Virus record (IMG/VR): IMGVR_UViG_3300032223_000637
Span: 1-54,163 of that record
Reading direction: 5' to 3' (one strand)
From: a virus
Taxonomy: Duplodnaviria > Caudoviricetes
DNA length: 54,163 nucleotides
Shown here one piece after another: positions 1 to 54,163 of the stretch. Numbering within the stretch: the first letter of the stretch is position 1; each line of letters starts with the position of its first letter. Position numbers and translations under genes: made by a program. The notes beneath the pieces were generated by a model. That model made no database searches, was not told the DNA's origin, and saw only the letters and a program-made list of their open reading frames with translations.

Positions 1-503
1 GGGCCATAGGGAACTTTGTTTGCTTCTACAAAATAATTTGCATAGAATGCCTTAGCCAACGGAATGTCATTTCCTATGATAGTTTTAAGATAAACATCCT
101 TGGCACGTTCTTGTCGCATTATAGAAGTGATCCTGCCCATATCTAACTGATTTATAGGAACATTGTCCATATCAGTCCAACCATCTAACCAAGGAGCATA
201 GTCGGTTTGCAGTGCGTGTATGAATTCGGTGCCCTCTCCTGCCCAGTCTGTAAACTTGCCAGCCATCTTAGGTGTAGCATTAACACGGCGAACAAAATCC
301 TCAGCGTCAATTTTAAGATGTTTTAGTAGTCCGATAAATGTAGAAGTTCCGCTTTCGCCTGCGATAATCGGAGGACGTTCAGGATCTTCAACTACAGTTA
401 CACTGAGAGTTGGCCAGTTTCTTTTTAAGAATAATGCAGTTAACCATCCTGCACTGCCTCCTCCGAGCACAACTGCTTTAGAATTTGTATTGAAGCGATT
501 CAT
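1..503 (-). CDS. Flavin-dependent tryptophan-halogenase-like protein (N-terminal part only; runs off the window edge)
   Basis: Not in the ORF track. Manual translation from ATG at 503 gives MNRFNTNSKAVVLGGGSAGWLTALFLKRNWP...PIIAGESG...NATPKMAGKFTDW: GxGxxG FAD motif plus the conserved Lys region. Overlaps the stop of the adjacent halogenase. Confidence 0.85.
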   Translation of the reverse strand, partial: MNRFNTNSKAVVLGGGSAGWLTALFLKRNWPTLSVTVVEDPERPPIIAGESGTSTFIGLLKHLKIDAEDFVRRVNATPKMAGKFTDWAGEGTEFIHALQTDYAPWLDGWTDMDNVPINQLDMGRITSIMRQERAKDVYLKTIIGNDIPLAKAFYANYFVEANKVPYG

Positions 504-1983
504 ATCTTTCCTTGATTTTTTCTAGACATACACGATGAGGCCAAGTTTCTACATTGTCGGTATACTGAGTATTTTCTCTCATTATCTCATTGTTGATTTC
601 GATGTACTTGTGCATCTGGCTTTCATATTTTTCTTTGATTTTTTCTGTGTTAAACATACGAAGCCCGTGCATTACCTGAGTATAACTTAGCTGGGTAAAC
701 AACTGCATTGGATGATTAAAATAATGCGGATGCGGCATATGATTCTTAAAGTAGTCTAGATAATCTTTATTGAAATCAGTGATAGCCATTTCGTTTTTAC
801 ACCAGCGCCAAAACTCTGTATCACTGCGTTCTGTGAAATAGTGCAGCTGAATAAAGTCGACAATATTCTTGGCAACAACACTCATATCTTGATTGTATTT
901 CTTCGGAGCGATGTCTGATCCTTTTTCATAAAAGAATATCGCAGGCAACAGCATAAATGACTGCTGTATTGTTGTGCCTATGCTGCTGGCCTCTAATGGC
1001 TCGACGAATATTCCGCTGAGTCCTATGCTGACACAGTTCTTAATCCAAAATTCTTCAACATATCCCGCACCAAATTTTACTCTACGACCAATCTTAAGCT
1101 CGTCAGTGATGCCTAGATTATTAGCATAATGCTGTGATACTTCATCGTAGGCTTTGGTTTCATCTATGAAACTATCACAGAATACATAACCATTACCAAA
1201 TCTTTCCTGTGTGGGAATGCGCCACACCCATCCGCTGCTTAATGCAGTTGATTCTGTGTAACTTGGAATTTCTTCTTTGTATCCTGTAGGAAAAGCCAAT
1301 GCTGAATTCATTGGCAGTTGGTTAGTACAGTCGATCCACTTGGCTCCTAGTTTAGAAGCAATCACTCTGCGGAAGCCACTACAGTCAACAAAGAAATCAT
1401 AACTGTGTGTTGTGTTGTCTTTGTCTAGCAACTCTTTGACATAGCCTTGCTCGTCTAGAATTACATCGTTGATTTCTGTATCTACAATATTGATGTTACG
1501 TTCTTTACAGAGTCTATGTAGGTAGTCGTTTAACTTGAATGTGTCAAAATGATACTGCGCAAATATTTCGTGCAGCGGCTCTGGATGTCTGCTGAGTTTA
1601 CTCCATTTAAAACAAGTATCTAAAGGATCGTAGTTGTTGGCAACCATATGGATCCAAGTAAAAGGCAAGCCGTTTTCTTTGCTGTGTCCACCAAATGTTT
1701 CCATCAGGCTGTGGAAATAGTGTGTGCCGTCGCCGTGCCAATCTGTAAACTTAATGCCCATCTTAAACGTAGCACCTGTTTCTCTAACAAGATCAGTAAC
1801 GTTAACGTCAATGTGTTGGATAAATTTACGCCAGTGTTCTGTAGATCCTTCACCTACACCAATAATACCTAGTTGGCTAGACTCGATCATTGTAATTTTA
1901 AGATCAGGATAGGCTTTGCGCATCATAAGAGCAACAACACAACCGCTGGTGCCACCGCCTAAAATACATAATGAATCTATCAT
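478..1983 (-). CDS. Flavin-dependent tryptophan-halogenase family protein (PrnA/RebH-like)
   Basis: GGGTSG, IGVGEGS, ATFKMGIKF (catalytic Lys position), FVDCSGF, GWVWRIP (WxWxIP), FVEPLEAS; 501 aa. Confidence 0.9.
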   Translation of the reverse strand: MIDSLCILGGGTSGCVVALMMRKAYPDLKITMIESSQLGIIGVGEGSTEHWRKFIQHIDVNVTDLVRETGATFKMGIKFTDWHGDGTHYFHSLMETFGGHSKENGLPFTWIHMVANNYDPLDTCFKWSKLSRHPEPLHEIFAQYHFDTFKLNDYLHRLCKERNINIVDTEINDVILDEQGYVKELLDKDNTTHSYDFFVDCSGFRRVIASKLGAKWIDCTNQLPMNSALAFPTGYKEEIPSYTESTALSSGWVWRIPTQERFGNGYVFCDSFIDETKAYDEVSQHYANNLGITDELKIGRRVKFGAGYVEEFWIKNCVSIGLSGIFVEPLEASSIGTTIQQSFMLLPAIFFYEKGSDIAPKKYNQDMSVVAKNIVDFIQLHYFTERSDTEFWRWCKNEMAITDFNKDYLDYFKNHMPHPHYFNHPMQLFTQLSYTQVMHGLRMFNTEKIKEKYESQMHKYIEINNEIMRENTQYTDNVETWPHRVCLEKIKERYESLQYKF

Positions 1984-3467
1984 AGTTTATAAACCTTATC
2001 TGAATAACGCTCTTTGACAATATTTACAGCTTCTCTACTGGTGTAGAATTTTGTGTCTTTTTCCGACGGCACTGTTGAGTAATGATATCTCACAGCTTCT
2101 ATGAAATGATGAAAGTGCGTATCATATTGCTGTTTGATTTTTTCTACATCGAACATTCTAAGTCCGTGCATTACCTGCACCCAATTTAAAATATCGTAGA
2201 TACAATAGTTTGTAGTAGGCAGTGCCAATTGATTGATAAAATTAGTTTTAAAGATTTCTAAATGTTCAGCATTGAAATCTGTCATTTTTAAATTGTTTTT
2301 ACACCAACGCCAAAATTCTGTGTCATTGCGTTCTGTGAAATAATGCAGTTGTATAAAATCTAAGATGTTGGTCATAACTTCGTCGAAAATCTTATTGTAA
2401 TGTTTTTCTGTTACAGTATCGTTGCGCTGCCAGGTCGACAGTGCACCAGCTAAAACTCGTGACTGTTGTACTGTTGTTGATATGCTGCTGGCTTCTAATG
2501 GTTCTACAAAACTGCTACTCAGCCCAACACTGACACAGTTCTTAACCCAAAACTTATCGACCTTTCCGGAAACAAAGTTGACCTTACGTGCGATTTTAAT
2601 GGGATCGGCAAACTCTTTTTGTATTTCAGCGATAGCCTGATCTTCGGAAATAAATCGATCACTGAAAACATAGCCGTTGCCAAATCTATCCTGTACAGGA
2701 CTGCGCCAATGCCATCCGCTGCTCAATGCTTTGGCTAGGGTGTATGGCGGAATTTCTTCTTGATAAGGACTAGGAAATGCGATAGCTGAATTCATTGGCA
2801 GATACTCTGACCAATCTACCCAAGTAGTTCCTAGCTTAGAAGCGATCACTCTGCGGAATCCACTGCTGTCTATGAAAAAATCAGCAGCATATTTGTTATT
2901 GTCAGTGTCAACAATAGACTCTACAAAGCCTTCTTGATCCAAAACAGCATCTACGATTTCAGCTTCAATGACTTCTATGTCACGTTCGCTGCATTTACCT
3001 AAGAAAAACGCATTTAGTTTTTCGCTGTCAAAATGGAATTGATAAAAATTATCAGCCAGCGGTTCTGCGTGTAGCCCACGCATCGCTAGATCCCAATGCA
3101 TCTTACTGTTGTCAATGCCGTCACGGATCATAGACATCATCGTGTAAGGACAGCCAGTGTAGGGATCTTGCACAGCCATATATTCCGGTAAACTGTGGAA
3201 GTAGTGTGTACCATCACCGTGCCAGTTTTCGAACTTAATGCCGCCTTTGAGTGTGGCGCCACACTCTTTGATGATTTCCCAATTGGCGATTCCTGTAGCC
3301 TTGGCAAACAAATCCCAGTGTTCTGTAGAGCCTTCGCCGACGCCGATGGTTCCTATCTTAGTTGATTTAACAACTGTGATTTTTAAATTAGGCAATGATG
3401 CTCGAAGATATAGCGCAGTCATTAGTCCTGCATTGCCGCCACCAAGCACAGTTAGTGTTTTAATCAT
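1980..3467 (-). CDS. Flavin-dependent tryptophan-halogenase family protein (paralog)
   Basis: GGGNAG, IGVGEGS, ATLKGGIKF, FIDSSGF, GWHWRSP, FVEPLEAS; clearly paralogous to 478..1983; ATGA-type overlaps. Confidence 0.9.
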   Translation of the reverse strand: MIKTLTVLGGGNAGLMTALYLRASLPNLKITVVKSTKIGTIGVGEGSTEHWDLFAKATGIANWEIIKECGATLKGGIKFENWHGDGTHYFHSLPEYMAVQDPYTGCPYTMMSMIRDGIDNSKMHWDLAMRGLHAEPLADNFYQFHFDSEKLNAFFLGKCSERDIEVIEAEIVDAVLDQEGFVESIVDTDNNKYAADFFIDSSGFRRVIASKLGTTWVDWSEYLPMNSAIAFPSPYQEEIPPYTLAKALSSGWHWRSPVQDRFGNGYVFSDRFISEDQAIAEIQKEFADPIKIARKVNFVSGKVDKFWVKNCVSVGLSSSFVEPLEASSISTTVQQSRVLAGALSTWQRNDTVTEKHYNKIFDEVMTNILDFIQLHYFTERNDTEFWRWCKNNLKMTDFNAEHLEIFKTNFINQLALPTTNYCIYDILNWVQVMHGLRMFDVEKIKQQYDTHFHHFIEAVRYHYSTVPSEKDTKFYTSREAVNIVKERYSDKVYKL

Positions 3468-4072
3468 AGGTCTACTTGTATAGTTGCTTTAGAGTCAGTG
3501 GCTAGATTGTGATTAACTTTACCTGTAGGGAATGTATTGAAACTAATGATAAATCTATCAAGCTGACCAAAGTGTGTAGGACTGCTGTGGAACAACCAAC
3601 TTGGAAATATAATTAATTTTCCTGGTACAGCATCTGAAGTAATTGAAGAATTATAGTCGTGTCGCAGTACTTCTAGTTGAGCAAACGCTCGCTGTGTTAC
3701 TGGATCTTCAAACAAGGTAGGTGCACCGTCAGTGGCATAGTATACTCCGCTGTACATACTCATAGAATGTCTATGATAGTTCTGATACATTGACTCTTTG
3801 CCTATGGCTACATTGAACCAACTGTTGATAATCTCAATTTTATCACAGTCGTATTTCATTGTTACACGGATTTCTTCCAGACATTCGCGGAACCAATCAA
3901 ACAATGGTTCAAAGTCTGGATCTTTATGTAGGTCTGCTAGTACACTGATGTTGGTGTTTTTCTTTACAGGCGCAGTGGTCATACGCTCTAGCTTACCAAC
4001 TAGTTCGTAGTTGTCTATGTTAGGATTGTTGAATACAAAAACTTCAACAGGAAAAAGATTTAGTATTTCCAT
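3464..4072 (-). CDS. Putative 2OG-Fe(II) oxygenase (TIGR02466-like)
   Basis: SWFN...HRH...SGVYY...GKLIIFPSWLFH...RFIISFN pattern. Confidence 0.8.
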   Translation of the reverse strand: MEILNLFPVEVFVFNNPNIDNYELVGKLERMTTAPVKKNTNISVLADLHKDPDFEPLFDWFRECLEEIRVTMKYDCDKIEIINSWFNVAIGKESMYQNYHRHSMSMYSGVYYATDGAPTLFEDPVTQRAFAQLEVLRHDYNSSITSDAVPGKLIIFPSWLFHSSPTHFGQLDRFIISFNTFPTGKVNHNLATDSKATIQVDL

Positions 4073-4650
4073 TAATACTCAACCCAACCTGTTAACAGAT
4101 ATTTTTCACCGCTCAGTGGAGGATTGCCACGATGTGTGTGCGTGAATCCTGCAGGCCAAATTGTCAGTGTGCCTTTGGTTGCAGGTACACGTAGGTTCTG
4201 GTAGAGCCATTCTGTTTCTCCACCTTGCTCTACAGTATTAAGATAGACGCCCCAGGCACAGATGCGAGCAGATCGCTCAATTGCATCTGATTCAAAATGC
4301 CATTGATGATATCCTTCGCCGGGCATTGTTTTTTGTATCTTCATTGATCGTATAGTATGCTTGCCTGCTTCTTGTAGAACGCTGTAATGTTCAAGATATT
4401 CAGACCAGCAATGCCAAAATCTATCCATAAAGAAACCTAGAAATCCTGCTCCCGGACCAAACCGCAGAGATTTTTCATCTAAAACGTAAACACCTTTGTC
4501 ACTTTTATAATGTGCAAGGCCGTCTTTGATTGCTTGTCTTGTGTAACTGAGTTGTAATTGATCTAGTCTATTGAAATGATCAATAATCTGCTGGCACTCG
4601 TTGTCTGTAAGAATGCCGTCCCAGATGCCAATATCTTTTTCTAGTTTCAT
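4072..4650 (-). CDS. 2OG-Fe(II) oxygenase (prolyl-4-hydroxylase-like)
   Basis: GYHQWHFE...YLN..GGET...WPAGFTHTHRGNPP..KY; start moved to ATG 4650 (MKLEKD), uncertain. Confidence 0.85.
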   Translation of the reverse strand: MKLEKDIGIWDGILTDNECQQIIDHFNRLDQLQLSYTRQAIKDGLAHYKSDKGVYVLDEKSLRFGPGAGFLGFFMDRFWHCWSEYLEHYSVLQEAGKHTIRSMKIQKTMPGEGYHQWHFESDAIERSARICAWGVYLNTVEQGGETEWLYQNLRVPATKGTLTIWPAGFTHTHRGNPPLSGEKYLLTGWVEY

Positions 4651-4725
4651 ATTCAATGCAGAACCCTTGTAAACGATACTATATATATCATAAATTAACA
4701 CAGCATATTACTATCCTGGACTCCT

Positions 4726-5319
4726 ATGAACTCTGAAAAAACACTTTGGCCTTTGTTCTCTAAACCAATTTTTAAAACACCTGTTGATGTTTCGGGGTTA
4801 GATCTCAGCAGCGTAGAATGGCTTCCAAATTACAATAATTGGATCAGCAAATCACAGAACATTCTAGAGCAACCTGGATTTGAAAAACTGTCACAGGTAG
4901 TGTTTGACGGAGTCTGTGAATATTTCTATGGTATAATGCAGGCCAGTGAAAAAGTTGAACTAGCGATCACAGAGTCCTGGTTAAACAAAACAGAAAAAGG
5001 ACAGATACACCATAGACATTATCATCCTAACAGCATTTTTTCTGCGATAGTATACCTTGAATCTGAAGGTGAAACAGGGCAAACTAAATTTATTACCAGC
5101 GAATATCAAACCATAGAATACGATATCAACGATTCAAATCTCTACAATTCCAAGAGTTGGAGTATCGCACCTAAGGTTGGAGATATGTTGGTATTTCCTT
5201 CTAGCGTTGAGCATATGGTTACAGAATATCAAGGTAACACTCCACGCATCACACTGAGCTTCAATACATTTTTACGTGGTCAAATCAACTCAATGCCGCT
5301 GACAAGGCTGAGTATTTAA
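4726..5319 (+). CDS. Putative 2OG-Fe(II) oxygenase (TIGR02466-like)
   Basis: SWLN...HYHPNS.FSAIVY...GDMLVFPSSVEH...RITLSFN; paralog of 3464..4072. Confidence 0.82.
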   Translation: MNSEKTLWPLFSKPIFKTPVDVSGLDLSSVEWLPNYNNWISKSQNILEQPGFEKLSQVVFDGVCEYFYGIMQASEKVELAITESWLNKTEKGQIHHRHYHPNSIFSAIVYLESEGETGQTKFITSEYQTIEYDINDSNLYNSKSWSIAPKVGDMLVFPSSVEHMVTEYQGNTPRITLSFNTFLRGQINSMPLTRLSI

Positions 5320-6146
5320 ATTTTAGACTTGGGATACTTGTTTCTAAAGTATTCAAACAGCTGAGTAATTACACGTATTTTATTTCCCACTGAGTCACTT
5401 CTAGGAAATCTGCTGTGATTTGAGAAGGTATAGGCTTCTTCTATTTCTTTTTCAACGTCACCTGCAACATCTACGATAAAATCAACACCACCTTGCTCTA
5501 CAAGTTTACGGCTGATAGGCACATATTGCACTAATGGTGTTCCTGCACGTATCAGGGTCTCGCCCTCAAGTACGTGCCAAAACAATTGGATACTAACAGA
5601 GTGCATATACTTAGGGTCAACGATTCCGATAGCTGCTGTAAATCTAGCTTCGTTGTCGTAGCTCACAGGAATCTGCAATAACAAGATATCATCGCTGGCT
5701 TTGATGCGCCACGGAGTTTCTACTTTAACCGCACTGTGTAGAGTAGGGCGATCTGTGTTGGGAATTTCTTTAGGAATCAAGGGTTCTGTCTGCGCAGGGC
5801 TGTGCCAGCTAACGTAGTAATCTGTGCCGCCAAAGGTATATTTGTCACTGTGACGCTTGAACATAAACGGAGTTTCCCAGTTTAAGTGCTGTACTTCTGG
5901 GCCCGTTTTGATCACGAAATCTGCAGGCGCTCGCATCACAAAACCAGACCTAACCAGTTGTTTGATCGCTGGGCAATTTAATACTACTTGCTTGCCCTGT
6001 TCGGGTCTATTTCGATCTGTTGTTGCTAGACTGTTCCAGTCGCGTTCTACGAGCTTTGACTGTGTTACAGGGTAAACAAGGGCAACGTTCTGATCTAAAC
6101 AATAGAACCTAACCCAGCTTTTTTTCTTTTTAAATAGATTAAACAT
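5316..6146 (-). CDS. Hypothetical phage protein (CPA...GF...AP and GTPLVQY motifs; beta-rich)
   Basis: 276-aa ORF with TAAATA 5 nt upstream of the ATG. Confidence 0.6.
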   Translation of the reverse strand: MFNLFKKKKSWVRFYCLDQNVALVYPVTQSKLVERDWNSLATTDRNRPEQGKQVVLNCPAIKQLVRSGFVMRAPADFVIKTGPEVQHLNWETPFMFKRHSDKYTFGGTDYYVSWHSPAQTEPLIPKEIPNTDRPTLHSAVKVETPWRIKASDDILLLQIPVSYDNEARFTAAIGIVDPKYMHSVSIQLFWHVLEGETLIRAGTPLVQYVPISRKLVEQGGVDFIVDVAGDVEKEIEEAYTFSNHSRFPRSDSVGNKIRVITQLFEYFRNKYPKSKI

Positions 6147-6151
6147 AGTGG

Positions 6152-6157
6152 TATTTA
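6152..6157 (-). promoter_or_regulatory. Late-promoter core TAAATA
   Basis: TAAATA-ccact-ATG on the minus strand. Confidence 0.6.
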
Positions 6158-6203
6158 CACGTTATCTGCACAGTTAACACAAGTCCTGAAAGATGCCGAA
6201 CTG

Positions 6204-6210
6204 ATAAATA
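6204..6210 (+). promoter_or_regulatory. Late-promoter core ATAAATA for the fibre/structural genes
   Basis: Resembles the T4 late promoter TATAAATA; followed by a GAGG SD and ATG 6236. Confidence 0.6.
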
Positions 6211-6235
6211 ATAGGACGAGGAACCTTTAATCACT

Positions 6236-6958
6236 ATGTCTAACTTTAACAGTATCAGATTACTACCAAATTATGATCACACAACTTTAACACGTAAAGT
6301 TGCAGCCAAGGGCGAAGTGTTTTATGACCCAGATACCGTATCTTTGCGAGTATTTGACGGTGCGGTTTCTGGAGGGTACACTCTTTTAAGAGCTGACCTA
6401 AACAACGTATCTGGAACACTACCTGCGGCAAATCTAGCAGGAAATATTCCCAACAGCAAACTAGCTAACCCTACGATAACACTGGGAACTACAGCGGCTT
6501 CACTAGGTGCAACAGTTACTGATATCGCTGGATTGAATTCTATCGCAGCTACAACATTCACTGGTAATTTGTCAGGTACTGCTTCAAGTGTAACCAACGG
6601 TGTTTATACTACAGGCCCACAGACTATCGGTGGTGCTAAAACATTTAGTACGACTATCGTAGGTAATATCAGCGGCAATGCTGGCACAGCATCAAAGCTT
6701 CAAACATCGATAACCATCAACAATCAACCGTTTGATGGATCGACCAGTGTCATTATACCAGCAGATGCAATGATGCTAACTAATGATACTATCGCAGCAA
6801 ATGTTATTCACTCAAGCCTACAAGATGTAGGTACATTGACAAGTTTATCAGTAGCGGGAGCAATAACTGTTCCAACTACCCCAGTTGCTAAAACAGATGC
6901 AACAAACAAAAATTATGTAGACATTAGAGCAGTGGCAATGTCAGTAGCACTAAGTTAA
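6236..6958 (+). CDS. Tail-fibre-like structural protein
   Basis: Thr/Gly/Asn-rich with fibre-type segments FTGNLSGTAS, GNAGTASKL, INNQPFDGS, SSLQDVGTLTSL, DATNKNYVD. Confidence 0.65.
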   Translation: MSNFNSIRLLPNYDHTTLTRKVAAKGEVFYDPDTVSLRVFDGAVSGGYTLLRADLNNVSGTLPAANLAGNIPNSKLANPTITLGTTAASLGATVTDIAGLNSIAATTFTGNLSGTASSVTNGVYTTGPQTIGGAKTFSTTIVGNISGNAGTASKLQTSITINNQPFDGSTSVIIPADAMMLTNDTIAANVIHSSLQDVGTLTSLSVAGAITVPTTPVAKTDATNKNYVDIRAVAMSVALS

Positions 6959-6979
6959 ATTAACCAAGGAAATACCTAA

Positions 6980-9900
6980 ATGTCGAAGAAACAGATTACG
7001 AATTATAAATTTAGTCCAGGCGGAATTCCTCCGGCATACGGTCTATATCCTAATGCAGTGGCATTGTTAACAGCGAACAAATCATTCCTTATCGCTGAGA
7101 TGGATCAATATATTCGCAACCAAATCACAGCAAACGCCAGCAACTCTAGCAGTCCGTACTATGGTTATTCGTACACGACTACAAGATCAAACAAGTGCCA
7201 ACGCGACACAGGGTATATCATTGATGCAATTATCTATGACTTGACCTATGGCGGAAACTCATTAATTTATCAGCAAGCTCAGCGTTTTTATGTCAACGGC
7301 GTCCTCCAGGTTCTTACTCCTGCTGTAGAAGTTGACACGCATACTTGGTTAAGAAACAAGATCACAACTAACATTTTAACAAAAACCAGCTACACAAAAC
7401 TCAACACTCAGCCAACAGCTAATCAGGTCCTATCAGGATCTGCCGGTGAAGCGGGCAGTGCTGCGGTAGTTACTACAGAATACAATGTAGTAATTAATGC
7501 TATCAATACTGGCTTGAGTTCGTTGCCTACAGCCGTTGTTCCAAACAGCCAAGGTGCTAATCTAGCTCCTGACACAGTAACATTATTAGATGCTAATAAA
7601 CGTTTTATTCAAGAAGAAGCCATTGCTTATATCCAATACAACGTAGCCAACAACATTGCGCCTTATGCCTACTATACCTATGACGCTGCAAAATGTCGAC
7701 GTGACGTTAGCTATATTTTAGATGGCTACATCAACGATATCAAACACGGAGGCAATAAAAAGACTGTTAACTATGCTTCGAAATACTTTGAAGGCGGAAT
7801 TCCACAGGTCGATGGCAGTCGTCAGCCTGAGGTCTATGCACATACTTTTATCAAAGATCTAATAGAAAACTATATTTTAGTCAACGTTGCATTTGCTGCT
7901 AGACAGACATCAGTACCACAGACAATTAATTTTTCTGTCAGTGCTGAAGTTTTTGGAACAACGCTAATTTCAACTCTTTCTGGCGTAGTTATTGATGTAA
8001 TTGCCAATGGCTTAACATCTGTACCTTCGATACTAACTAACCAGGGTACAGTTAAGTTCCCAGGATTCTACAAACTAAAAGACCTATTACTAATTACCAA
8101 CACATCACGTAGCGTGATTTTGTATAACTTTGCTGATCCAGCAACCGCAGCACAGATTACCTACAGCGGAGACTTTGACAGCGATTTTCCAGGAGCACTC
8201 TACGGCAACGACAAAGTTACCACAGTAACCTTTGACGTCGACACTACTGGAATGATGATCACCGATCAAATCCAAATTTTCGTTGAAGGCAAAGAACAAA
8301 CAGTACGATTAAATCCGATTGCCACAGACGCAATGGAACGTATGAAAGTAGGTATTCCACAGTCAATGCTTGACGCGGACTTTGAATACGGACTACAGCC
8401 AACTAAGTGGCAGACAGTTTCGATGATGCGTAACTATCCATCTGTTTATGAAATTCCAGGATCAGACCTTCCGGTTGTGTCAGTGACCACTGATGCATCA
8501 TCAGGCACCAGCGGTGTTGGTGCAAGCCAGATTACAGTTACTACTGTAGCTGCACACGGACTAAACGCAGGCGATGTGTTTACAATCAAAGCATTGGCAG
8601 CTTCTGTGTTAGGATTTAGCCGTGCAGAAGGTACATTCCTTGTTGCATCGGTAGTTAGTTCAGTGCAATTTACCTACTATGCAAAATCAAAAGTTGGCAC
8701 AACAAACCCAACTACACTAAGCCAAACATATACACAGTTACGTAAAGCTGGTTTCTATACAGGTGCATCAGTTGGTACACCAAGCTTCAACGTTTACTCA
8801 AATGGTCAAAGCGGTACTATTACTTCAAGTTTAATAACAGCCACTGGTTCAAACTTTATTGGTTTCACAGGTTCACCTCCTCCACAAGGAGCTCCACTAA
8901 CTGGTTCTTCTATTAACTCTGGTACACAGATCACAGCGGTAGTTGGAAGTGGTGGTACGGTTACAACTACACAATTGACCAGCACTGCCAACATTGGTGA
9001 CACACAGATTGTTGTTGCTAGCACCGCTGGCATATTGCCAGGATTGGTATTCAACCGCGGTGATGGCGTTGCTGTACAGGTTCTTGATGTAACCAGCAAC
9101 ACAGTTACACTAAGCGGCACACTAACCAGCTTAATCAATGGTACCAATCAAACCTACACAGAAGTCAACGGCACAGTATCACCCGCAGGCGGCACCGGAG
9201 CAACATTTGCTGTGTCAAGAACGGGCGGTTCATACACCGCAGTGGTCGGATCAAGTAACGGCCAAGGCTACAGCGCCAATGATGCTATTACAATTTTAGG
9301 TAGCAACCTGGGCGGCGCAAGTCCAGCTAACGATGCAACTATCACAGTTTTAACTGCTGCTCCAAAGAACACCGTTGTTGATTTAGACCCAACAACATTA
9401 AATGTCGGCTCAGGCGGTTACAGTGATGCTACTGGTGTGTTGACTGTAGGCGGAACTGGTACTGGTTTAACTGTAGATATCACAACCTCTGCTACGGTCA
9501 TTCAAACGGTTACTGTACGTAATCCAGGCAGCGGTTACACAGTGGGCAATACAGTTACTATCGCAGGCGGTAATGGCGATGCAGTTATCAGCATACTAAC
9601 AGTTGCACCAGGTGGAGATATTCAAACATTTACTATCGGCGGCACGCCAGCGACTGCACCAAGCGTTGGATTTACCAGTGCTATTACACTAAGTGATATA
9701 ACAACTGGAAATATTTCAAACGCCAGCACATCGGTGTCATATACTTCAATCCCAACAATTGAAGTAACATTCTTAAACGCACACGGATTTATTCCAGGCG
9801 ACAGTATTACAGTTGCTATTACCAGTTCAGATACCAATGCTCAACTAGCAGCAGGTGCATATTATGTTGAACAAACTCCAACAACAAGTTCGTTGCGTTA

Positions 9901-12900
9901 CACTGCTAGGGCTCCGGGCACGATCGCTAACACATTAACAGGCATTGTTTATTCAAGACCAGACAGCTACTATGTACACAGACCATATGACGGCGGTGTA
10001 CAACTAGGTACAGGCGGTCCAGCACACGGCGCCACAGCGATTCGTATGAGTAAGAAATATATTCGTTACCAATCTGGTAAAGGTATTATGTACAACACCG
10101 GTGCGCTATTTGCTCCAAGCTATGATATTCAAAGTGTCACAGCGACCGGTACTGCGGTAAACAGCGTTATCACAGTTACCAACGATGACACTGACCACGG
10201 TTGTCAGGTAGGTGCGCAGATTACACTTAACGGTGTAACTACATCCGGTGTAAATGGCGTATACACTGTTGCTTCTATTATCAACGAACGTAGCTTTACA
10301 GTTCGAGCAACGCAGGTGTTAGGTTCTTCGACAATCGTGTTAGGTGATCCTTGCTATATGTCAGTGCTACACTGGCACGGTTCAACTGTTCGTTCTGGTA
10401 CATTCGATGACCAAAACGGTATGTTCTGGCAGTATGATGGTATTAGAATGGCTGTTGTCAAGCGTTCAAGTACCAACCACGTTGCTGGTACAATCAATAT
10501 TGCCACAGATTCAAACTTACTCACTGGTACTAACACAAGATTTACACAGCAGTTGGCTGCAGGCGATCGCGTTGTTATCAAAGGTATGAGTCACGTAGTA
10601 AGTCAAATCGTCAGCGACACTACATTGTATGTAACTCCCGACTATCGTGGAGTTAGCAACGTAGTTGGTGGTAAGATGACCAAGACCATCGACTTGGTTA
10701 TTCCTCAAGAGAATTGGAACCTAGATCCATTAAACGGGTCTGGGCCAAGCGGATACAACATCGACGTAACAAAGATGCAGATGATCGGTATGCAATGGAC
10801 TTGGTACGGTGCTGGATTTATTGACTTTATGTTGCGTGGTTCAGAAGGTAACTACACTTTTGCACACCGTTTCCGTAACTCAAACGTTAACCAAGAAGCA
10901 TATATGCGTTCTGGTAATCAACCTGTTCGCTACGAAGTTATTAATGAAGGTGCTAGAGATAAACTAGTTTCTGCAATTGATTCTTCACAGACAACTATTC
11001 CGTTGACTAATGCTTATTGGTTCCCATCAGCAGGTACTGTTATTATTGAAGCTGAAATGATACGTTACACCGGTAATGATGGTACGAACCTAACAGGGTG
11101 TGTACGTGGAACATCATTATCACAGTTCGTAGCTGGATCAACTAGAACATTCTCAGGTGGTGTGGCATCAGCACACGCTGCCAGCTCGGGTGTTATTTTA
11201 ATTAGTAACACAATTACTCCAATTATCAGTCACTGGGGTTCTGCGTTTATGATTGACGGACAGTTTGACAGTGACCGTGGTTATTTGTTTAACTATGCTT
11301 CTACTGGTATTTCTGTTACAACAGATAAGCAGACAGCTTTCTTGATCCGACTAGCACCTTCAGTGTCTAATGCTGTTGTTGGTGACTTAGGCGAGAAAGA
11401 ATTATTAAATCGTGCGCAGTTGTTGTTACAGACTGTGGCTATTTCCTCAGACGCTGTGTCAGGTAACACAGGCGGTATCGTTGTTGAAGGTGTGTTAAAT
11501 CCACAGAACTATCCAACTGACCCGACTAAGATTACCTGGACTGGACTTGCATCAAGTGCGGCAGGCGGACAACCTAGCTTTGCGCAGGTAGCTGCTGGAG
11601 GTTCTGTAACTTGGTCAGGTAACTTTAGTACAGCAACAGCAACAATTCAAGGTGCGTTTACAACAACATTAACAGCAACATCATTTGCTCCGTCAACTAA
11701 CTCGTTGACAGCAGTTGGATTTAATGCAGTGACTCAAACTGCGGCAGCAACATCGTTTGCTGTGGCAACGTCGGCAACATATAACTCTGCGTTAAGCACA
11801 GCGAGAAACGATTTCTTGATTCCTATGTCGACATATACTACGTTGCAAGGTCAAACACCATTGGCAGTTGGTGATACTATTTCTGCAACAACGTATATCA
11901 CTGGCGGTCAAACAATTACAGGTTTAACTCCGAACTATACTACACTGGCATCTGTGGCCTATGCTAGAATTACGATGAGTGCTGTGGCTAACGCAACATC
12001 ACCGACAGCAGCATCCAACGGTGCGCAGAATATTACAGTGACATTTACCAGCTCTGTGGCAGCAACGTTTGCATCTGCATTGAGTACTGCACGTTCAACA
12101 TTCTTGATCACGCAGACTCAGTATGCTAGTTCAGCGGCAGCAGTCACTGACGTGTTAAGTACAGCAACCTACTTGACAGGAAATCAAACAATTTCTGCTA
12201 GAACACCTAACTATACAACAATCCAAGGTGTGTCATACGCATTGATCCAAACGAGTTCTGCAGCAAACGCTACTAGTGCTTCTGGTTCAGCTAACAGTGT
12301 AACGATAACAGCAACTTCTGCAGCAACAGCAACATATGGCTCTGCACTAAGCACTGCACGTACAGACTTCTTAGTGACAGATACACAATGGTCAGCTAGC
12401 GGTATTTTAGCAGGCGATGGGTTATCAGTGGCAACATATATTACTGGTGGCCAGACAGTGTCTAGTGTTCAAATAGGTTATGTAACTATCAACGCTACTA
12501 GCTATACTAGAGTGGTTATGAGTGCTGCGGCTAACGCAACGTCAACATCGGGTAGTGGCAATAACCAAACAGTAACAGTAACCGCAGCAGGTACTGGCGC
12601 AACTTATCAGAAAACCAACTACTTGTTCTTTACATCAACTAGCTGGTTAGCAACCAATGCCACACTAGGTACCAAAGTTGCTACTGATCAAACAGCGTTC
12701 CCAGCGGGCACATCTGTAGCAGCGGTAAGTTCGAGAACTTTCGGTTCTACCACAGTATATCGTATAACGTTTACTCAAACAACTAACACAACTCTTAATG
12801 CTGCCGGTACATTGAAATTCCAGTTCGGTGCTGCTTATGCGTTACCAGGTGAACAGGTATTCTCGTTCATTAGTAACCCAGGAAACGTTGATAACTTAGA

Positions 12901-13054: not shown

Positions 13055-13323
13055 AGATTTTCACGCCAGGCACGAAGTCTACTATCGATCGCCTGGCGGA
13101 GATCTCTAATTTTTACACGTAGGTCTTCGATTTCGGTTCCGGGTTTTTCGCCTAGAGTCAACCGACCGTGTGCTTCGTCAATGGATTGAACTGTTAATTT
13201 TAGGCTTAGAAGATTTCCTTCTAAAAGTTCCTTTAATTTGTCGTCAGTAACAACGTCAATTTCAGACTTGAATCTCTCATACTCAGTTAAAAATCTTTCT
13301 GATTTAAGTAGCGGTGTGAACAT
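13051..13323 (-). CDS. Hypothetical coiled-coil protein
   Basis: 90-aa helical ORF overlapping the upstream gene. Confidence 0.6.
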   Translation of the reverse strand: MFTPLLKSERFLTEYERFKSEIDVVTDDKLKELLEGNLLSLKLTVQSIDEAHGRLTLGEKPGTEIEDLRVKIRDLRQAIDSRLRAWRENL

Positions 13324-13693
13324 TTACTAACTCCAATATAGTTTCGATCTTTGTGCGGATCAGTTGATTATTTAATGTTGCTTTAAGACCGGGGTGTAGC
13401 TGCTTTGGTAGATAATCTAGATCACACCAAGCAATAGACTGTGCTGTAGTTGTTAAAAACTCTGTGTCAACTAAGCATACATAGGTACCGTACTCAAATC
13501 CACGGTCTTCGCTGAGGTACAATTCAATAGGCAATATCCTACCTTGACTGTAATTGTTTAATAATTCTTGGGCATCTTCTAATAAGATATTTTTCCTAGC
13601 AAACGTCGGTACTGTCCATTTCTCGTTTTCGAGAATCATCAGTACACGTTTGGTATTTTTAGCTAGGAATAATAATCCGGCACGTTGTTGCAT
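13304..13693 (-). CDS. Degenerate Nudix-fold-like protein
   Basis: AGLLFLA..RVLMIL..W and AWCDLDYLPKQLHPGL resemble phage Nudix flanks, but there is no Nudix box; ATG 13693 lies 5 nt after TAAGTA. Confidence 0.45.
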   Translation of the reverse strand: MQQRAGLLFLAKNTKRVLMILENEKWTVPTFARKNILLEDAQELLNNYSQGRILPIELYLSEDRGFEYGTYVCLVDTEFLTTTAQSIAWCDLDYLPKQLHPGLKATLNNQLIRTKIETILELVNVHTAT

Positions 13694-13701
13694 CAACGTA
13701 C

Positions 13702-16457: not shown

Positions 16458-16464
16458 AGTCATA

Positions 16465-16485
16465 TATTTACCGCTACGATAAATA
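16465..16485. promoter_or_regulatory. Back-to-back divergent late promoters TATTTA-N9-TAAATA
   Basis: tatttaccgctacgataaata lies between the divergent gp14-like and gp13-like starts. Confidence 0.7.
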
Positions 16486-16490
16486 ACAGT

Positions 16491-17249: not shown

Positions 17250-17274
17250 CCTTGTAATTAATCTATAATATAAT
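17246..17274 (+). promoter_or_regulatory. Sigma70-type promoter
   Basis: TTGACC-17 nt-TATAAT upstream of the dNMP kinase. Confidence 0.75.
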
Positions 17275-17294
17275 TGTTCTAAAGGGGACAATTT

Positions 17295-18236: not shown

Positions 18237-18303
18237 ATTAATATTTACACCTTTTAAGCCCCTTTTTATGTACGTCTAAGAAGCCAATTTTGCCCAAGAC
18301 CGC

Positions 18304-18309: not shown

Positions 18310-18340
18310 CAATGAGCAACTATTACCAGGAGAATAGGGA

Positions 18341-38125: not shown

Positions 38126-38126
38126 A

Positions 38127-39744: not shown

Positions 39745-39769
39745 CATTCAGTATTGCTGGTGCTATACT
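39741..39769 (+). promoter_or_regulatory. Sigma70-type promoter (extended -10)
   Basis: TTGACA-17 nt-TATACT with TGn; ATG 6 nt downstream. Confidence 0.8.
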
Positions 39770-39775
39770 GAATAA

Positions 39776-46852: not shown

Positions 46853-47863
46853 ATGACTCTGGTTGTTGATACATTTCGAACGCTAATCCCGCCACGTGCT
46901 AAATCGAGCCCATCTGGCTGGACTAGTTTCAATGCCCCGTGTTGCCATCATCGAGGACATAGTCAAGATAATCGTAAACGCGGCGGACTAAGGTTTGACC
47001 AAGGTATCGTTTATAATTGCTTCAATTGTAAATTCACAGCTAGTTGGTTACCAGGAAGACCATTATCCGGTAAATTCCAAAGCCTATGCCGTTGGATGGG
47101 CGCAAGCGACGACACAGTCAAGCAAATGGTCTTTGAAGCACTCAAGACCGAATCCCCAGAATATGAACATAAAGTAGAAGAGCCAAAGTTAACGTTTGAG
47201 CCAAAAGCCTTGCCGGAAGGTTCGCTGTCTCTAAAAGAGTGGGCAGGTATGGTAGACGACTTACCAGAAGAGTACAAAGAAAAATTCATAGGAGTTTTAG
47301 GATATATTGTTGATCGAGGATATGATCCTTATGATGGCAATTTCTATTGGAGTCCTGGTGACGGATACAGTGATCGGGTGCTAATACCGTTTACATATCA
47401 AGGTAAAATAGTAGGAAATACGGCACGTAAAATAACAGACGGACGCCCAAAATATCTATCAGATCAACATCCACATTTTGTGTTTAATGTTGACGCACAA
47501 TTAGAATCACACAAGTATGTATTTGTCACAGAAGGACCATTTGACGCCCTTGCGATCGGCGGGGTTGCACTTCTCACTAACGATGTTGCCGAACAACAAG
47601 AACGAATAATTAATAGTCTAGGCAGTGAAGTTATTGTGATACCAGATCAAGACGAAGCAGGCCTAGTGCTAATTAAACGAGCAATTGAGTGTGATTGGGC
47701 TGTGGCATTTCCAAATTGGGATAGTGATGTAAAGGACGTTGCTGATGCTGTACAGCGATATGGACGATTGTTTGTAACAGTAGATGCTATCAAGACAGCA
47801 CAGAAAGGTGAGATCAAACTTACTATGGCTTTAAAGCAATTAGAACAGAGATTGAAACGATGA
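46853..47863 (+). CDS. gp61: DNA primase (gp61-like)
   Basis: Zn-binding CC...YNCFNC, R.LIPF...G.TAR, PKY, TOPRIM VTEGPFDA and PDQDEAG, KDV. Confidence 0.88.
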   Translation: MTLVVDTFRTLIPPRAKSSPSGWTSFNAPCCHHRGHSQDNRKRGGLRFDQGIVYNCFNCKFTASWLPGRPLSGKFQSLCRWMGASDDTVKQMVFEALKTESPEYEHKVEEPKLTFEPKALPEGSLSLKEWAGMVDDLPEEYKEKFIGVLGYIVDRGYDPYDGNFYWSPGDGYSDRVLIPFTYQGKIVGNTARKITDGRPKYLSDQHPHFVFNVDAQLESHKYVFVTEGPFDALAIGGVALLTNDVAEQQERIINSLGSEVIVIPDQDEAGLVLIKRAIECDWAVAFPNWDSDVKDVADAVQRYGRLFVTVDAIKTAQKGEIKLTMALKQLEQRLKR

Positions 47864-47964
47864 TTAAAAAACTTCTAGCATTAATTAAAAATTATAGAGA
47901 GGAAAGGGCTTTTAAAAAGAAGCTGGCAGAAATGCGTAAACGTGACCCTTTCATTTACAAATGA
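47860..47964 (+). CDS. 34-aa basic peptide
   Basis: MIKKLLALIKNYREERAFKKKLAEMRKRDPFIYK; ATGA overlaps at both ends; below the ORF-track cutoff. Confidence 0.65.
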   Translation: MIKKLLALIKNYREERAFKKKLAEMRKRDPFIYK

Positions 47965-49430
47965 TTACCTGGGGCGTATCAGCAGGAGCCCATAATGCTG
48001 CCCTTGCCGTATTCAAAGACGATGAGTTGGTATTTGCCAGTTCGTCAGAAAGATTTAGTAAAATTAAAAATGATCCAGACCTGTGTCACGAACTAGTTAA
48101 TCACGCAATTAACTTACACGGTCGACCAAATGAAGTATGCTGGTATGAGCGTCCGGTAAAAAAAGCCTTTAGAAAACTATTTGCAAAACAAGGTTGGCAA
48201 TTAGAAAATCTAAAAATGTATATGAATAGGTTTGCTGTAACTGCACCTATTAAAACCTGCGATCATCATCTCAGTCACGCTGCTGGCGGTTTCTACACAA
48301 GTCCATTTGAAGAAGCCTGCGTATTAGTAATTGATGCCATTGGTGAATTTAAAACCTGCAGTATATGGTCAGCTAGAAAGGATAAACTGACCTACATCTC
48401 TGGGTTAGATTATCCAACTAGTGCTGGATTGTTTTATTCAGCAATGACACAACGAGTAGGTCTTAAACCTATTGAAGAAGAATATATCCTTATGGGTATG
48501 GCAGCATATGGCAATGCTAATCGTTTATCTAGGGATATGCTGACAGATTTTATCTCATTCCCAAATGACGATTATCAAAATCCTTTTCGTCTTAAACAAA
48601 ATCTCCATAGGGGATGTGACTGGTGGCGGCCTGAATTGAATACGCAACAAGACTTTTACGATATTGCCGCTGCCACCCAATCTATCTACGAGATGATGTT
48701 TGAAAGAACTTTATATAAAGCAATGGATTCTGTTGGCAGTGAAAATCTAGTGTTAATGGGAGGGTGTGCATTAAACTGTGCTGCCAACTCAATAGCCTAC
48801 AAGTATTTCAAGAACGTATGGATTATGCCGGCACCAGGAGATGATGGTTCGGCTATCGGTGCGGTATTAGCACACAAAAAGAAGCATATCAATTGGACTG
48901 GTCCTTATCTAGGCTATGACATAAAGCCAACAGCAACTAACGAAGAAATTGTCGAGTATCTATTAGAAAATAAGATCTGCGGAGTTGCACGTGGCCCTGC
49001 AGAGTTTGGTCCACGAGCCTTAGGTAATCGTAGTTTGTTGGCGGATCCTAGAGATTTGACTATAAAGAAAGAAGTCAACAAAATAAAACAACGCCAACAG
49101 TTTAGACCATTTGCTCCGGCAGTGTTAGAAGAGTTTGCCAATGATCATTTTGATATGCCAACTAACTCAACCCCATATATGCAATATGCTGTGAAGTGTA
49201 AAACACCTAAAACATATCCAGCTATTGTACACGAAGACGGGACCAGTAGAGTTCAGACAGTGCCCGATGATGGATCACCTTTTAGAATGTTGTTAGAAGA
49301 ATGGTATCAGAAATCTGGTTCTCCTATGTTGTTGAATACCAGCCTTAACATCAAAGGACAACCTATGGTAAATGATGCTGCTGATTCTCGCAATTTTGAA
49401 AGCCTATATGGTGTTAAAGTGTTTAACTAG
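47961..49430 (+). CDS. Carbamoyltransferase (CmcH/NodU/TobZ family)
   Basis: ERFS.IKND, HHLSHAA, VIDAIGE, EYILMGMAAYG, GGCALNC, EFGPRALGNRSLLADP, FRPFAP, VHEDGTSRVQ, LLNTSLN. Confidence 0.95.
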   Translation: MITWGVSAGAHNAALAVFKDDELVFASSSERFSKIKNDPDLCHELVNHAINLHGRPNEVCWYERPVKKAFRKLFAKQGWQLENLKMYMNRFAVTAPIKTCDHHLSHAAGGFYTSPFEEACVLVIDAIGEFKTCSIWSARKDKLTYISGLDYPTSAGLFYSAMTQRVGLKPIEEEYILMGMAAYGNANRLSRDMLTDFISFPNDDYQNPFRLKQNLHRGCDWWRPELNTQQDFYDIAAATQSIYEMMFERTLYKAMDSVGSENLVLMGGCALNCAANSIAYKYFKNVWIMPAPGDDGSAIGAVLAHKKKHINWTGPYLGYDIKPTATNEEIVEYLLENKICGVARGPAEFGPRALGNRSLLADPRDLTIKKEVNKIKQRQQFRPFAPAVLEEFANDHFDMPTNSTPYMQYAVKCKTPKTYPAIVHEDGTSRVQTVPDDGSPFRMLLEEWYQKSGSPMLLNTSLNIKGQPMVNDAADSRNFESLYGVKVFN

Positions 49431-49446: not shown

Positions 49447-50862
49447 ATGATTAAAGATTACGGAATAGAAGTACAGAAGTTATATCTAGAAATTATGTTA
49501 TCAGATGCTGAAACGTTTGTGCGTTGTCAAGGCATCTTTGACCATACTTTGTTTGATCGTAAACTTCAAGATGCAGCAGAGTTTATGAACACCTATGCCA
49601 GAGAGTATAATGTGTTGCCAGACTACAATATGGTTAATGCTAGTTGTAGAACAGATCTAGTGAAACCAGAAGACCTTAAAGATGGCCATATGGATTGGTT
49701 TATGGACGAGTTCGAACAGTTCACTCGTCACAAAGCATTGGAACGTGCGATTATTAATTCAGCAGACCTGTTAGAAAAACACGACTACGGTGCTGTTGAA
49801 GTTATGGTCAAAGAAGCAGTACAGATCGGTCTTGCCAAGGATATGGGCACAGATTACTTTGCTGATCCACGCAGTCGATTGATGAAGATCAAGGACAAGA
49901 ACGGACAAGTAAGTACTGGTTGGCCGACATTAGACAAACGTTTGTTTGGTGGTATGAACCGCGGAGAGTTGAATATCTTTGCAGGTGGTTCAGGAGCAGG
50001 TAAGTCGCTATTCTTAGCGAACCTAGGAGTGAATTGGGCACTACAGGGGTTGAACGTAGTTTACCTTACATTGGAACTTTCTGAAGAGTTAGTGTCAATG
50101 CGTATCGATGCAATGCTAACAGGCATTCCAACAAAAGAGATTTTCAAAGACTTAGATGATGTTGAGATGAAAGTTAGAATCATCGGTAAGAAATCTGGTG
50201 CAATGCAGATCAAGTATATGCCGTCTGGGAAAACCGCAAATGATCTAAGAGCGTATTTGAAAGAGTTTGAAATTAAAACTGGACGCAAAGTTGATGTGTT
50301 GTTAGTTGACTATTTAGACTTGTTGATGCCTGTGAGCAAGAAGATTAGCCCGGCAGACTTGTTTATCAAAGACAAGTATGTATCAGAAGAACTGCGTAAC
50401 CTAGCAGTTGAAAAGAACTGTGTGTTTGTCACAGCGGCACAGTTAAATCGTGGGGCTGTTGAAGAAGTTGAATTTGATCACAGTCATATTTCAGGCGGTT
50501 TGTCAAAGATTCAAACAGCAGATAACGTGTTTGGTATCTTTACATCACGAGCAATGCGTGAACGTGGACGCTATCAAATTCAGTTAATGAAAACTCGTTC
50601 ATCAAGCGGTGTTGGTATGAAAGTTGATTTAGAGTTTAATCTAGAAAGCCTTAAGATCACAGACCTGCCAGAAGATGAACAAGAAAGCAATGGTGCAACA
50701 TCTAGAGGTGCTAGTTCAATTATTGACAGCATCAAACGTAAAACAGAAATCACACAGCGTGAAGAACCCACAGATGGTGCTCCTGTTGGCAAAGTACGTG
50801 CTACCGTAGAATCCACAAAACTACGTGAAATTTTAAACAGTATGGGCGGAGATGAAGAGTAG
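49447..50862 (+). CDS. gp41: Replicative DnaB-like helicase
   Basis: STGW..LD..L.GG, GGSGAGKS, TLELSE, VDYLDL, AAQLNR, MKTR. Confidence 0.93.
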   Translation: MIKDYGIEVQKLYLEIMLSDAETFVRCQGIFDHTLFDRKLQDAAEFMNTYAREYNVLPDYNMVNASCRTDLVKPEDLKDGHMDWFMDEFEQFTRHKALERAIINSADLLEKHDYGAVEVMVKEAVQIGLAKDMGTDYFADPRSRLMKIKDKNGQVSTGWPTLDKRLFGGMNRGELNIFAGGSGAGKSLFLANLGVNWALQGLNVVYLTLELSEELVSMRIDAMLTGIPTKEIFKDLDDVEMKVRIIGKKSGAMQIKYMPSGKTANDLRAYLKEFEIKTGRKVDVLLVDYLDLLMPVSKKISPADLFIKDKYVSEELRNLAVEKNCVFVTAAQLNRGAVEEVEFDHSHISGGLSKIQTADNVFGIFTSRAMRERGRYQIQLMKTRSSSGVGMKVDLEFNLESLKITDLPEDEQESNGATSRGASSIIDSIKRKTEITQREEPTDGAPVGKVRATVESTKLREILNSMGGDEE

Positions 50863-53562: not shown

Positions 53563-54156
53563 ATGAACATATATACCCTAGAAGACATCAAAGTCATCGA
53601 CACTTTTATCCCCGAGCACTATCAACGTAGTCTCAACGGTTTTTTACTGAGCCCCGAGTTTCCACTATACCGAAACAACGGGACAGCCTACGATCGTGTA
53701 GAACGTGTGACCGCAGATATGCCCGTGTACTTAGATTCAAAGACACGCGAGCATACGCAGTACGTACACAGTTTCGCAGCACGTGGAGAAATAGACAGCC
53801 AATTCTGGCCAAGAGTAGCACCCTTGTTCTTCGAACTAGAACGCAGACTCGGTAGAGAATGCCGTATACTACGCTGTAAGCTAAACCTCAATACACAAGA
53901 TCGCGAATTCGCTGAAGATGAACACTATCCCGCACACATTGATGTAGCACAGAAAGACTGTGTGACTGCTATCTACTATGTCACAGATTCAGACGGTGAT
54001 ACCATATTCTACAACGATGATATGACTGAAATGACTCGTGTAACTCCCAAGCAGGGACAGTTAGTATACTTTCCTTGTAGAGTTCGTCACGCTGGACAGC
54101 CACCTAGAAACACACAGTATCGTATGGTAATCAACTTTAACGTCAAGCTGGTATAA
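53563..54156 (+). CDS. 2OG-Fe(II) oxygenase-like protein
   Basis: R.KLN, PAHID (HxD), TAIYYV.DSDG.T, H.G..P....R.VINFN. Confidence 0.8.
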   Translation: MNIYTLEDIKVIDTFIPEHYQRSLNGFLLSPEFPLYRNNGTAYDRVERVTADMPVYLDSKTREHTQYVHSFAARGEIDSQFWPRVAPLFFELERRLGRECRILRCKLNLNTQDREFAEDEHYPAHIDVAQKDCVTAIYYVTDSDGDTIFYNDDMTEMTRVTPKQGQLVYFPCRVRHAGQPPRNTQYRMVINFNVKLV

Positions 54157-54159
54157 ATA
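54152..54159 (+). promoter_or_regulatory. T4-type late promoter TATAAATA
   Basis: Exact match at the window end; downstream gene not visible. Confidence 0.55.
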
Positions 54160-54163
54160 CAAC

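Follow-up and report, generated by a model that had tools for sequence, protein, structure and literature searches.

Why should a phage genome use every palindromic tetranucleotide but one? The question is raised by the IMG/VR record IMGVR_UViG_3300032223_000637, a contig of 54,163 bp (referred to here, over its whole length, as the window) from which the word CATG is missing on both strands. This DNA belongs to an uncultured jumbo myophage of virulent type, related to T4 and known from metagenomes only. The record consists of this contig alone, and its CheckV completeness of 15% implies a genome of roughly 360 kb. The explanation that we favor, at a probability of about 0.75, is that the host population carries an orthodox Type II restriction enzyme with NlaIII- or FatI-like specificity, under whose pressure CATG has been purged.

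The absence of CATG is real and extreme. Base composition predicts 195.6 copies, close to the roughly 200 that an earlier note on this DNA had expected by chance when it reported the word as apparently missing, and a second-order Markov model predicts 158.6. In 100 dinucleotide-preserving shuffles the mean was 256.7 copies (standard deviation 14.2), with sites in every shuffle, so that the observed zero stands against an expectation of 159-257. The comparison of four-letter words with a Markov expectation, which the note had proposed, revealed no comparable depletion of any other palindrome, and the words that it had found easily by eye are indeed plentiful: GATC 274 copies, AGCT 175, GTAC 177, TGCA 226, GGCC 68 and CCGG 74. 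The remaining fifteen palindromic tetranucleotides stand at 0.29-1.40 of their composition expectation; the second most depleted palindrome is CGCG, with 27 copies observed and 60 expected under the Markov model. Among words of five and six letters outside CATG, none is depleted past z = -3.5, and no other short word in the window is comparably missing. Of the words one letter away from CATG, none is inflated (CACG, for instance, stands at 159 vs 144 expected and TATG at 319 vs 270), and a single systematic base-call error therefore cannot account for the gap. A second, independently made assembly (Logan contigs) of run X1, which is the probable source run and so not an independent sample, matched window positions 20000-29000 with 0 differences.

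The manner in which CATG has been avoided is visible at the level of codons. A simple greedy picker yielded 61 open reading frames (ORFs) covering 96% of the window, within which CATG could arise in three frame contexts. Histidine codons preceding a codon that starts with G are CAC in 81 cases and CAT in 0, whereas elsewhere CAT accounts for 140 of 238. Codons ending in C or T that precede the methionine codon ATG end in T 155 times and in C 0 times, and elsewhere C is used in 3,449 of 9,040. For NCN codons before TGN, the third base is A in 0 of 86 cases, as opposed to 1,753 of 3,738 in other positions. The constrained pairs that the earlier note had picked out by eye, histidine followed by glutamate or aspartate written as CAC GAx and NAT before ATG, thus proved to be exact rules. 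From the codon usage of the window itself, approximately 147 copies of CATG would be expected in the coding frames (81 x 0.59 + 155 x 0.38 + 86 x 0.47). None of the 44 ATG starts has a C directly before it, and the 2,139 bases of non-coding DNA contain no CATG. Removal of the word is wholly synonymous in all three frame contexts, leaving the proteins untouched. Because each context calls for a base change of its own while the proteins are unaffected, no single mutational bias or base-calling error can explain the pattern.

The CATG-free state is shared with a sister lineage recovered from other datasets, which has about 80% DNA identity to the window and a terminase large subunit (TerL) that is 95% identical. 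Six contigs of this lineage lack the word entirely, with 0 copies observed against expectations of 170 (G092), 99 (G093), 67 (G094), 16 (G095), 66 (G007) and 57 (G011); the halogenase genes of the window served to fetch such sister contigs. Silent divergence between the window and G007/G011 is saturating: 3,254 of 8,025 codons for the same residue differ (41%). At conserved pairs of histidine and a G-starting codon, both lineages nevertheless use CAC in 30 of 30 cases, and at conserved pairs of a C/T-ending codon and methionine both use T in 59 of 59. In control contexts, 37 of 91 histidine codons and 1,177 of 3,645 C/T-ending codons differ. Two relatives that are not purged do use the avoided codons at the same positions: CAT precedes G in 7 of 17 cases in L001 and in 9 of 20 in L002, and a C-ending codon precedes ATG in 14 of 32 and 11 of 34, respectively. 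Since 41% of same-residue codons differ and yet no CATG has appeared, the state is actively maintained rather than just inherited, and selection against CATG is continuing in both lineages.

To place this state among relatives, homologs of three marker proteins were collected from IMG/VR: 369 by TerL, at least 595 by the DnaB-like helicase and 367 by the gp15-like tail sheath stabilizer. The best 80 of each were used, giving 240 loci. Across these, the observed/expected (o/e) ratio of CATG lies between 0 and about 1.5. The word is absent from 3 of the 80 TerL loci, 7 have a ratio of 0.2-0.5 and the others reach up to 1.49, while the 160 DnaB and gp15 loci include 7 with none, 3 below 0.1, 15 at 0.1-0.3 and 13 at 0.3-0.5. 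Over whole contigs, observed and expected counts are 0/76 in G004, 0/88 in G009, 42/285 in G001, 20/209 in G002 and, for 100 kb of G003, 43/353. Close relatives keep the word: four loci whose TerL is 94-95% identical to that of the window (L001, L002, L004 and L006) have CATG o/e of 0.76-0.91. In maximum-likelihood trees built by a quick method from 81 rows per marker, the distribution of the purged state requires 3 changes for TerL (at least 2 of them forced by well-supported branches), 4 for DnaB and 3 for gp15. The purge is lineage-specific.

Within lineages that have lost only part of their CATG, one longer word is lost first or most fully. This is RCATGY (R, purine; Y, pyrimidine), whose depletion in every case equals or exceeds that of the other contexts of CATG; the reverse occurs in no locus. 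When loci are binned by the o/e of CATG outside RCATGY, those at 0.1-0.3 have an RCATGY o/e of 0.03 (6 observed, 176 expected) against 0.23 for other CATG; at 0.3-0.5 the two values are 0.18 and 0.39, and at 0.5-0.7 they are 0.40 and 0.62. Individual contigs make the nesting plain: G041 (L286-L291, 114 kb) has 0 RCATGY vs about 95 expected and keeps 212 other CATG sites, G003 has 0 vs about 88 with 43 other CATG, and G035 (L292-L299) has 5 vs about 138. CATG is the recognition word of NlaIII and FatI and RCATGY that of NspI (PMC6449724, PMC7653180); NlaIII, NspI and SphI are classed as HNH-superfamily enzymes, and their cuts are staggered by four bases (PMC2441816, PMC2699513).

The residual sites of partly depleted contigs have features of their own. 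In G001 (L246-L249), from a lineage with a CATG o/e of about 0.12-0.15, there are 42 residual sites, and 23 of these fall within 60,000-78,913, its last 19 kb, where GC content is 46-50% vs 40% overall and small ORFs are many; this end matches G003 from about 92,000. It may be recently acquired DNA that is not yet purged, or it may reflect an assembly chimera. In G003 (L261-L265), 35 of 43 residual sites have a CCATG/CATGG flank vs approximately 61% expected among non-RCATGY sites, and in the clade of L236, L239, L241 and L243 the residual sites mostly have CATGA/TCATG flanks; both biases concern small counts in non-independent contigs.

CATG is one of several palindromes that have been erased in this phage family. 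A word was counted as purged at an o/e below 0.1 with an expectation of at least 15, and the 240 loci plus the window (241 sequences) were scored. Palindromic tetranucleotides were purged in 81 of 3,636 tests, and the 120 classes of non-palindromic tetranucleotides in 0 of 28,823. The purged words were GTAC (17 sequences), CATG (14), CTAG (13), AGCT (13) and CGCG (10), with AATT (6), TGCA (4), ACGT (3) and GCGC (1) more rarely so; GATC, TTAA, CCGG, GGCC and TCGA were purged in none of the 241 sequences. At least one purged word besides CGCG is found in 61 of the 240 loci, and each purged word marks clades of its own. GTAC is at 0 in, for example, L031/L034/L040/L042 and L175-L184, CTAG at 0 in L121/L152/L155/L187 among others, AGCT at 0 in L077/L116/L118 among others, ACGT at 0 in such loci as L030/L156 and GCGC at 0 in L128, while AATT has an o/e of about 0.075 in loci such as L164-L168/L194 and TGCA one of about 0.09 in L008/L016/L048. 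The clade nearest to the window in the gp15 tree, an 11-row group with full support, has 11 AATT where 146 would be expected and keeps CATG. More than one word can be affected in one genome, as in the 160-kb G035, in which CTAG is absent, AGCT has an o/e of 0.16 and RCATGY is almost gone. Such purging of palindromes only is a signature of Type II restriction. Across the 240 loci CGCG is also generally low (median o/e 0.25), and GATC and TGCA are over-represented (medians 1.46 and 1.38); unlike the lineage-specific purges, these skews are compositional traits of the whole family.

The restriction to palindromes, the lineage-specific choice of word, the nesting of RCATGY within CATG, the silent-site mechanics and the continuing selection together point to cutting of double-stranded DNA by orthodox Type II enzymes of lineage-specific hosts. 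In such a scenario, an endonuclease present in the host population would cut unmethylated CATG in incoming phage DNA, each site being a chance of cleavage before the host methylase could protect the phage DNA. Each lost site would then raise the chance of a successful infection, and purifying selection at synonymous positions would remove CATG. The narrower RCATGY is probably the target of further enzymes, related or co-occurring, that act in the manner of NspI. The phage family, which is almost without DNA methylases, would rely on the loss of sites for its protection. If the remaining 85% of the genome is as free of CATG as the window, about 1,300 sites would have been removed in all. According to Rusinov et al. 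2018, avoidance mainly concerns the sites of orthodox Type II systems and is found mainly in non-temperate phages; about a tenth of viral genomes show a complete or almost complete loss of sites (PMC6286503). The broader proposition that the CATG restriction is host-encoded or at least resident in the infected cell, on a mobile element if not on the chromosome, appears to us very probable.

Several points weigh against this assignment. The agent is deduced from the pattern alone, the analysis having identified neither a host nor a CATG-cutting enzyme, and the window, at about 15% of the genome by CheckV, leaves room for a phage-borne methylase or nuclease elsewhere. Expectations for the relatives were derived from base composition only, and the loci are not independent, as many come from near-identical phages or from two parts of one contig. 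The only lead to a host came from relatives by TerL in three metagenome-assembled genomes (Betaproteobacteria TMED41, Crocinitomicaceae and Polynucleobacter), all of them on short contigs with normal CATG that are probably mis-binned. In 20 Polynucleobacter genomes, 20 kb around recA in each had a CATG o/e of 0.63-1.49 with no strong depletion; the test is a weak one, and the lead itself rested on probably mis-binned contigs of relatives that are not purged. The hope of the earlier note that the missing word would be a clue to the host has thus led to no host. Its proposal of selection by a CATG-specific restriction enzyme is well supported, though indirectly, in that the purge is synonymous, continuing, lineage-specific, confined to palindromes and nested, although the cognate enzyme has not been found. 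As for habitat, four lake-water metagenome runs contained 6% of the sampled window words, three of them (X2-X4) only as relatives, in pieces no longer than 813 bp that are 91-96% identical, which is at most a hint that the phage family lives in lakes.

The agent might instead be encoded by the phage, as the earlier note had also suggested: a CATG endonuclease, either an orphan or half of a restriction-modification pair, directed against host or competitor DNA, with the phage genome purged for its own safety. A count of zero, not merely a low one, is what an unprotected self-encoded enzyme would demand; about 85% of the genome is unseen, and several ORFs of the window have no family match. We nevertheless hold this to be improbable. 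The window, itself about 15% of the genome, has no ORF that matches any family of DNA methylases or restriction-type nucleases, and for each of its 61 ORFs there is a homolog in one or more relatives whose CATG o/e is at least 0.5. The two ORFs with a nuclease-like fold were considered as the CATG nuclease and rejected: the TnsA-like one is a core head-closure gene present in 64 of 83 loci (L001-L083), purged or not, and the 111-amino-acid HNH-like one is a core gene found in 83 of 240 loci with CATG o/e of 0-1.29. Weak HNH hits that had seemed to cluster in CATG-poor contigs were traced to the latter ORF and showed no association. Among 48-49 related records, comprising about 4 Mb and all fragments, D12 and C5 methylases were found in 0 of 48 each (D12 also in 0 of 5 in a smaller search), the HNH_2 family in 0 of 49 and the PvuII family in 0 of 49, the last a weak result as the control genomes were silent too. 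An N6_N4 methylase was found in 1 of 48 records (G032) and in 0 of 4 sister contigs; G032 (L245, L308) has 85 CATG vs 78 expected and no purged tetranucleotide in the 46 kb covered. Of 20 accessory ORFs of the CATG-free G004 and G009 searched against Pfam, approximately 12 match sugar-modifying, small-molecule methyltransferase or NifU families, 7 have no match, one has a sub-threshold match only and none matches a nuclease. The suggestion of a phage-borne CATG nuclease therefore gains no support from the window or from the related contigs. A self-encoded unprotected cutter would tolerate no residual sites, and the graded series of the family (o/e 0.6, 0.3, 0.1 and 0), with lineages at 0.1-0.5 keeping sites and having no detectable methylase, does not fit it; the series instead fits a cost per site, as with host restriction. 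Many different phage-borne enzymes would also be required for the purges of GTAC, CTAG, AGCT, AATT and other words. The boldest form of the idea, in which an unprotected CATG endonuclease in the unseen 85% shreds host or rival DNA and sister lineages do likewise with cutters of GTAC, CTAG, AGCT and AATT, we consider distinctly improbable; if true, jumbo phages of this family would generally go on the offensive by restriction without modification.

Another source of the cutter could be a mobile element that competes with the phage inside the infected cells and has a restriction-modification system for CATG; prophages, plasmids, satellites and co-infecting viruses are candidates. Type II restriction-modification systems are themselves mobile, and mobile systems would fit the patchy way in which the purged word switches quickly from one close relative to another. 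We regard this origin as unlikely in comparison with the host, while noting that the data do not separate a mobile-element from a host-chromosome location of the enzyme gene. Explanations that involve no cutting of DNA, among them a mutational bias such as deamination of methylated C, a constraint from translation starts or RNA structure, and an artefact of sequencing or assembly, are scarcely credible. Nothing specific speaks for them, beyond the facts that CATG contains ATG and that methylated motifs can give systematic base-call errors on some platforms. The replacement depends on the frame (C for T at position 3, T for C at position 1 and any base for A at position 2), strands, frames and non-coding DNA are equally clean, no neighboring word is inflated, the proteins are conserved, and the same absence is found in other assemblies and datasets. 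A purge that is confined to palindromes and varies by lineage across a family is also not predicted by any translational constraint.

The main features of the window are collected in Table 1. They place the contig with T4-related myophages; also encoded are a further helicase and several 2-oxoglutarate (2OG)-Fe(II) oxygenases, and tRNA genes are absent from the window. The best cultured match of TerL is that of Pseudomonas phage PA5oct (54.2% identity over 98% of the protein), followed by Agrobacterium and Sinorhizobium jumbo phages. No near-identical phage was present among 50,697 phage records, and the largest related contig is 281,658 bp long, at 80% completeness.

Table 1. Principal genes of the window, in order of position (E, E-value of the match)
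Feature	Position	Strand	Family match
Three tandem flavin-dependent (Trp-type) halogenase paralogs	3-503 (cut by contig end), 478-1983, 1980-3467	-	PF04820, E 1e-103, 4e-101, 1e-19
T4 gp15-like tail sheath stabilizer (marker for relatives)	13702-15192	-	PF16724, E 7e-27
Small Cys-rich ORF of 111 amino acids, sub-threshold HNH similarity	17901-18236	-	
Tail sheath, 1,131 amino acids	18341-21736	+	PF17482
Tail tube proteins after the sheath	21739-22389, 22450-23547	+	phrog_4542 (sheath/tube entry: PF17482; phrog_4542)
Small protein of TnsA-like fold, head closure (T4 gp4-like)	23912-24352	+	PF08722, E 5e-22; phrog_218, E 5e-38
Terminase large subunit (TerL), T4 type (marker for phage identity and for relatives)	26414-28000	+	PF03237/PF17289
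gp32-like single-stranded DNA-binding protein (SSB)	30569-31543	+	
UvsX/RecA-like protein	31763-32869	+	
UvsY-like protein	33108-33563	+	
Sugar-modification cassette: FkbM methyltransferase, cytidylyltransferase-cupin, GT8-like and GT2-like glycosyltransferases	33582-38125	+	
Toprim primase-like ORF	46853-47863	+	
Carbamoyltransferase	47961-49430	+	
DnaB-like helicase (marker for relatives)	49447-50862	+	

Two clusters of accessory genes stand out. The halogenases belong to a cluster (window 3-5319 and 53563-54156; G092 about 8,300-25,600) with three paralogs in the window and five in G092, together with many 2OG-Fe(II) oxygenase paralogs of about 200 amino acids, and beside it lie giant ORFs, of 2,024 amino acids in the window; those in G092 have 3,317 and at least 2,182. 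This cluster may serve the modification of virion fibers or of a small molecule. The sugar-modification cassette is hypervariable, and its content differs by lineage (window 33582-40963, G009 3588-19739, G004 17380-21655). It includes FkbM-type and other S-adenosylmethionine-dependent methyltransferases, GT8-, GT2- and GT29-like glycosyltransferases, a cytidylyltransferase-cupin and an NAD epimerase. Its tabulated part contains no DNA methyltransferase, and several ORFs at 35564-37319 and 38094-40963 on its side have no family match. The Cys-rich 111-amino-acid ORF, which lies antisense between a dNMP kinase gene and the sheath gene and has homologs of 55-100% identity, may encode a junction-resolving nuclease; picking of the longest ORF misses it and takes a 50-amino-acid ORF at 18105-18257 instead. 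In G032, the N6_N4-type gene (343 amino acids) and a 245-amino-acid ORF are inserted at 14,831-17,230 beside a 169-amino-acid HNH ORF, which is also found in G034, G037 and G042 without the methylase.

This abundant family amounts to an unusually clean natural experiment, in which sites have been lost to every degree between not at all and completely and sister lineages have erased different palindromes. It is thereby a good system in which to study the shaping of phage genomes by restriction. The graded series supplies data for models of how selection can remove about a thousand sites one at a time. The purged words form a "taboo-word" signature, which could link uncultured phages to hosts with a matching methylome motif in long-read metagenomes. 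Digestion of virome DNA with a CATG cutter, keeping the uncut fraction of high molecular weight, should enrich these genomes physically. None of the papers listed in our literature searches deals with a CATG-free phage, to judge by title or abstract, and the supplementary tables of Rusinov et al. 2018 may list CATG cases. The parts of the jumbo-phage literature consulted (PMC12619734, PMC13573597) hold nothing that we found on this family or on site avoidance, and within the same bounds we found no description, for any phage family, of multiple alternative purged words together with a nested RCATGY/CATG series.

Among cultured phages, PA5oct (Wroclawvirus, 286,783 bp) offers the nearest comparison by TerL. 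It too is a T4-related jumbo myophage, with neck, sheath and structural genes and TerL in the same order, but it is distant, and a 41.6-kb stretch of its genome has 82 CATG vs 124 expected and thus no purge. The window phage, its size being extrapolated, is probably a relative of PA5oct-like jumbo myophages (Wroclawvirus/Arenbergviridae), a TerL identity of 54% suggesting kinship short of demonstrated membership. Viral biology around a CATG cutter is known from the chlorovirus PBCV-1, which has the CviAII restriction-modification system specific for CATG; PBCV-1 encodes both nuclease and methylase and is protected by methylation, whereas the window phage, with no such genes found in the part seen, would be protected by the absence of sites. 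The Type IIP enzymes NlaIII (CATG), NspI (RCATGY) and SphI (GCATGC) have recognition words equal to the purged words, including their nesting, although for these enzymes and FatI the match is between words alone and not between genes. The loss of sites as a means of anti-restriction is itself of a known kind, the classic example being Staphylococcus phage K, which lacks GATC. As in the avoidance described for virulent double-stranded DNA phages by Rusinov et al. 2018 (PMC6286503), a short palindromic Type II word has been silently eliminated from a phage of non-temperate type that has no protective methylase in the part seen; the cases there are unlike the present one in genome size (here a jumbo genome of some 360 kb, by extrapolation), in the number of sites that would have been removed, in the alternative purged words and in the nesting of RCATGY within CATG. 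The value of the group lies in the mosaic of purged words across a whole family, in the nested RCATGY/CATG series and in so complete a purge for a jumbo phage.

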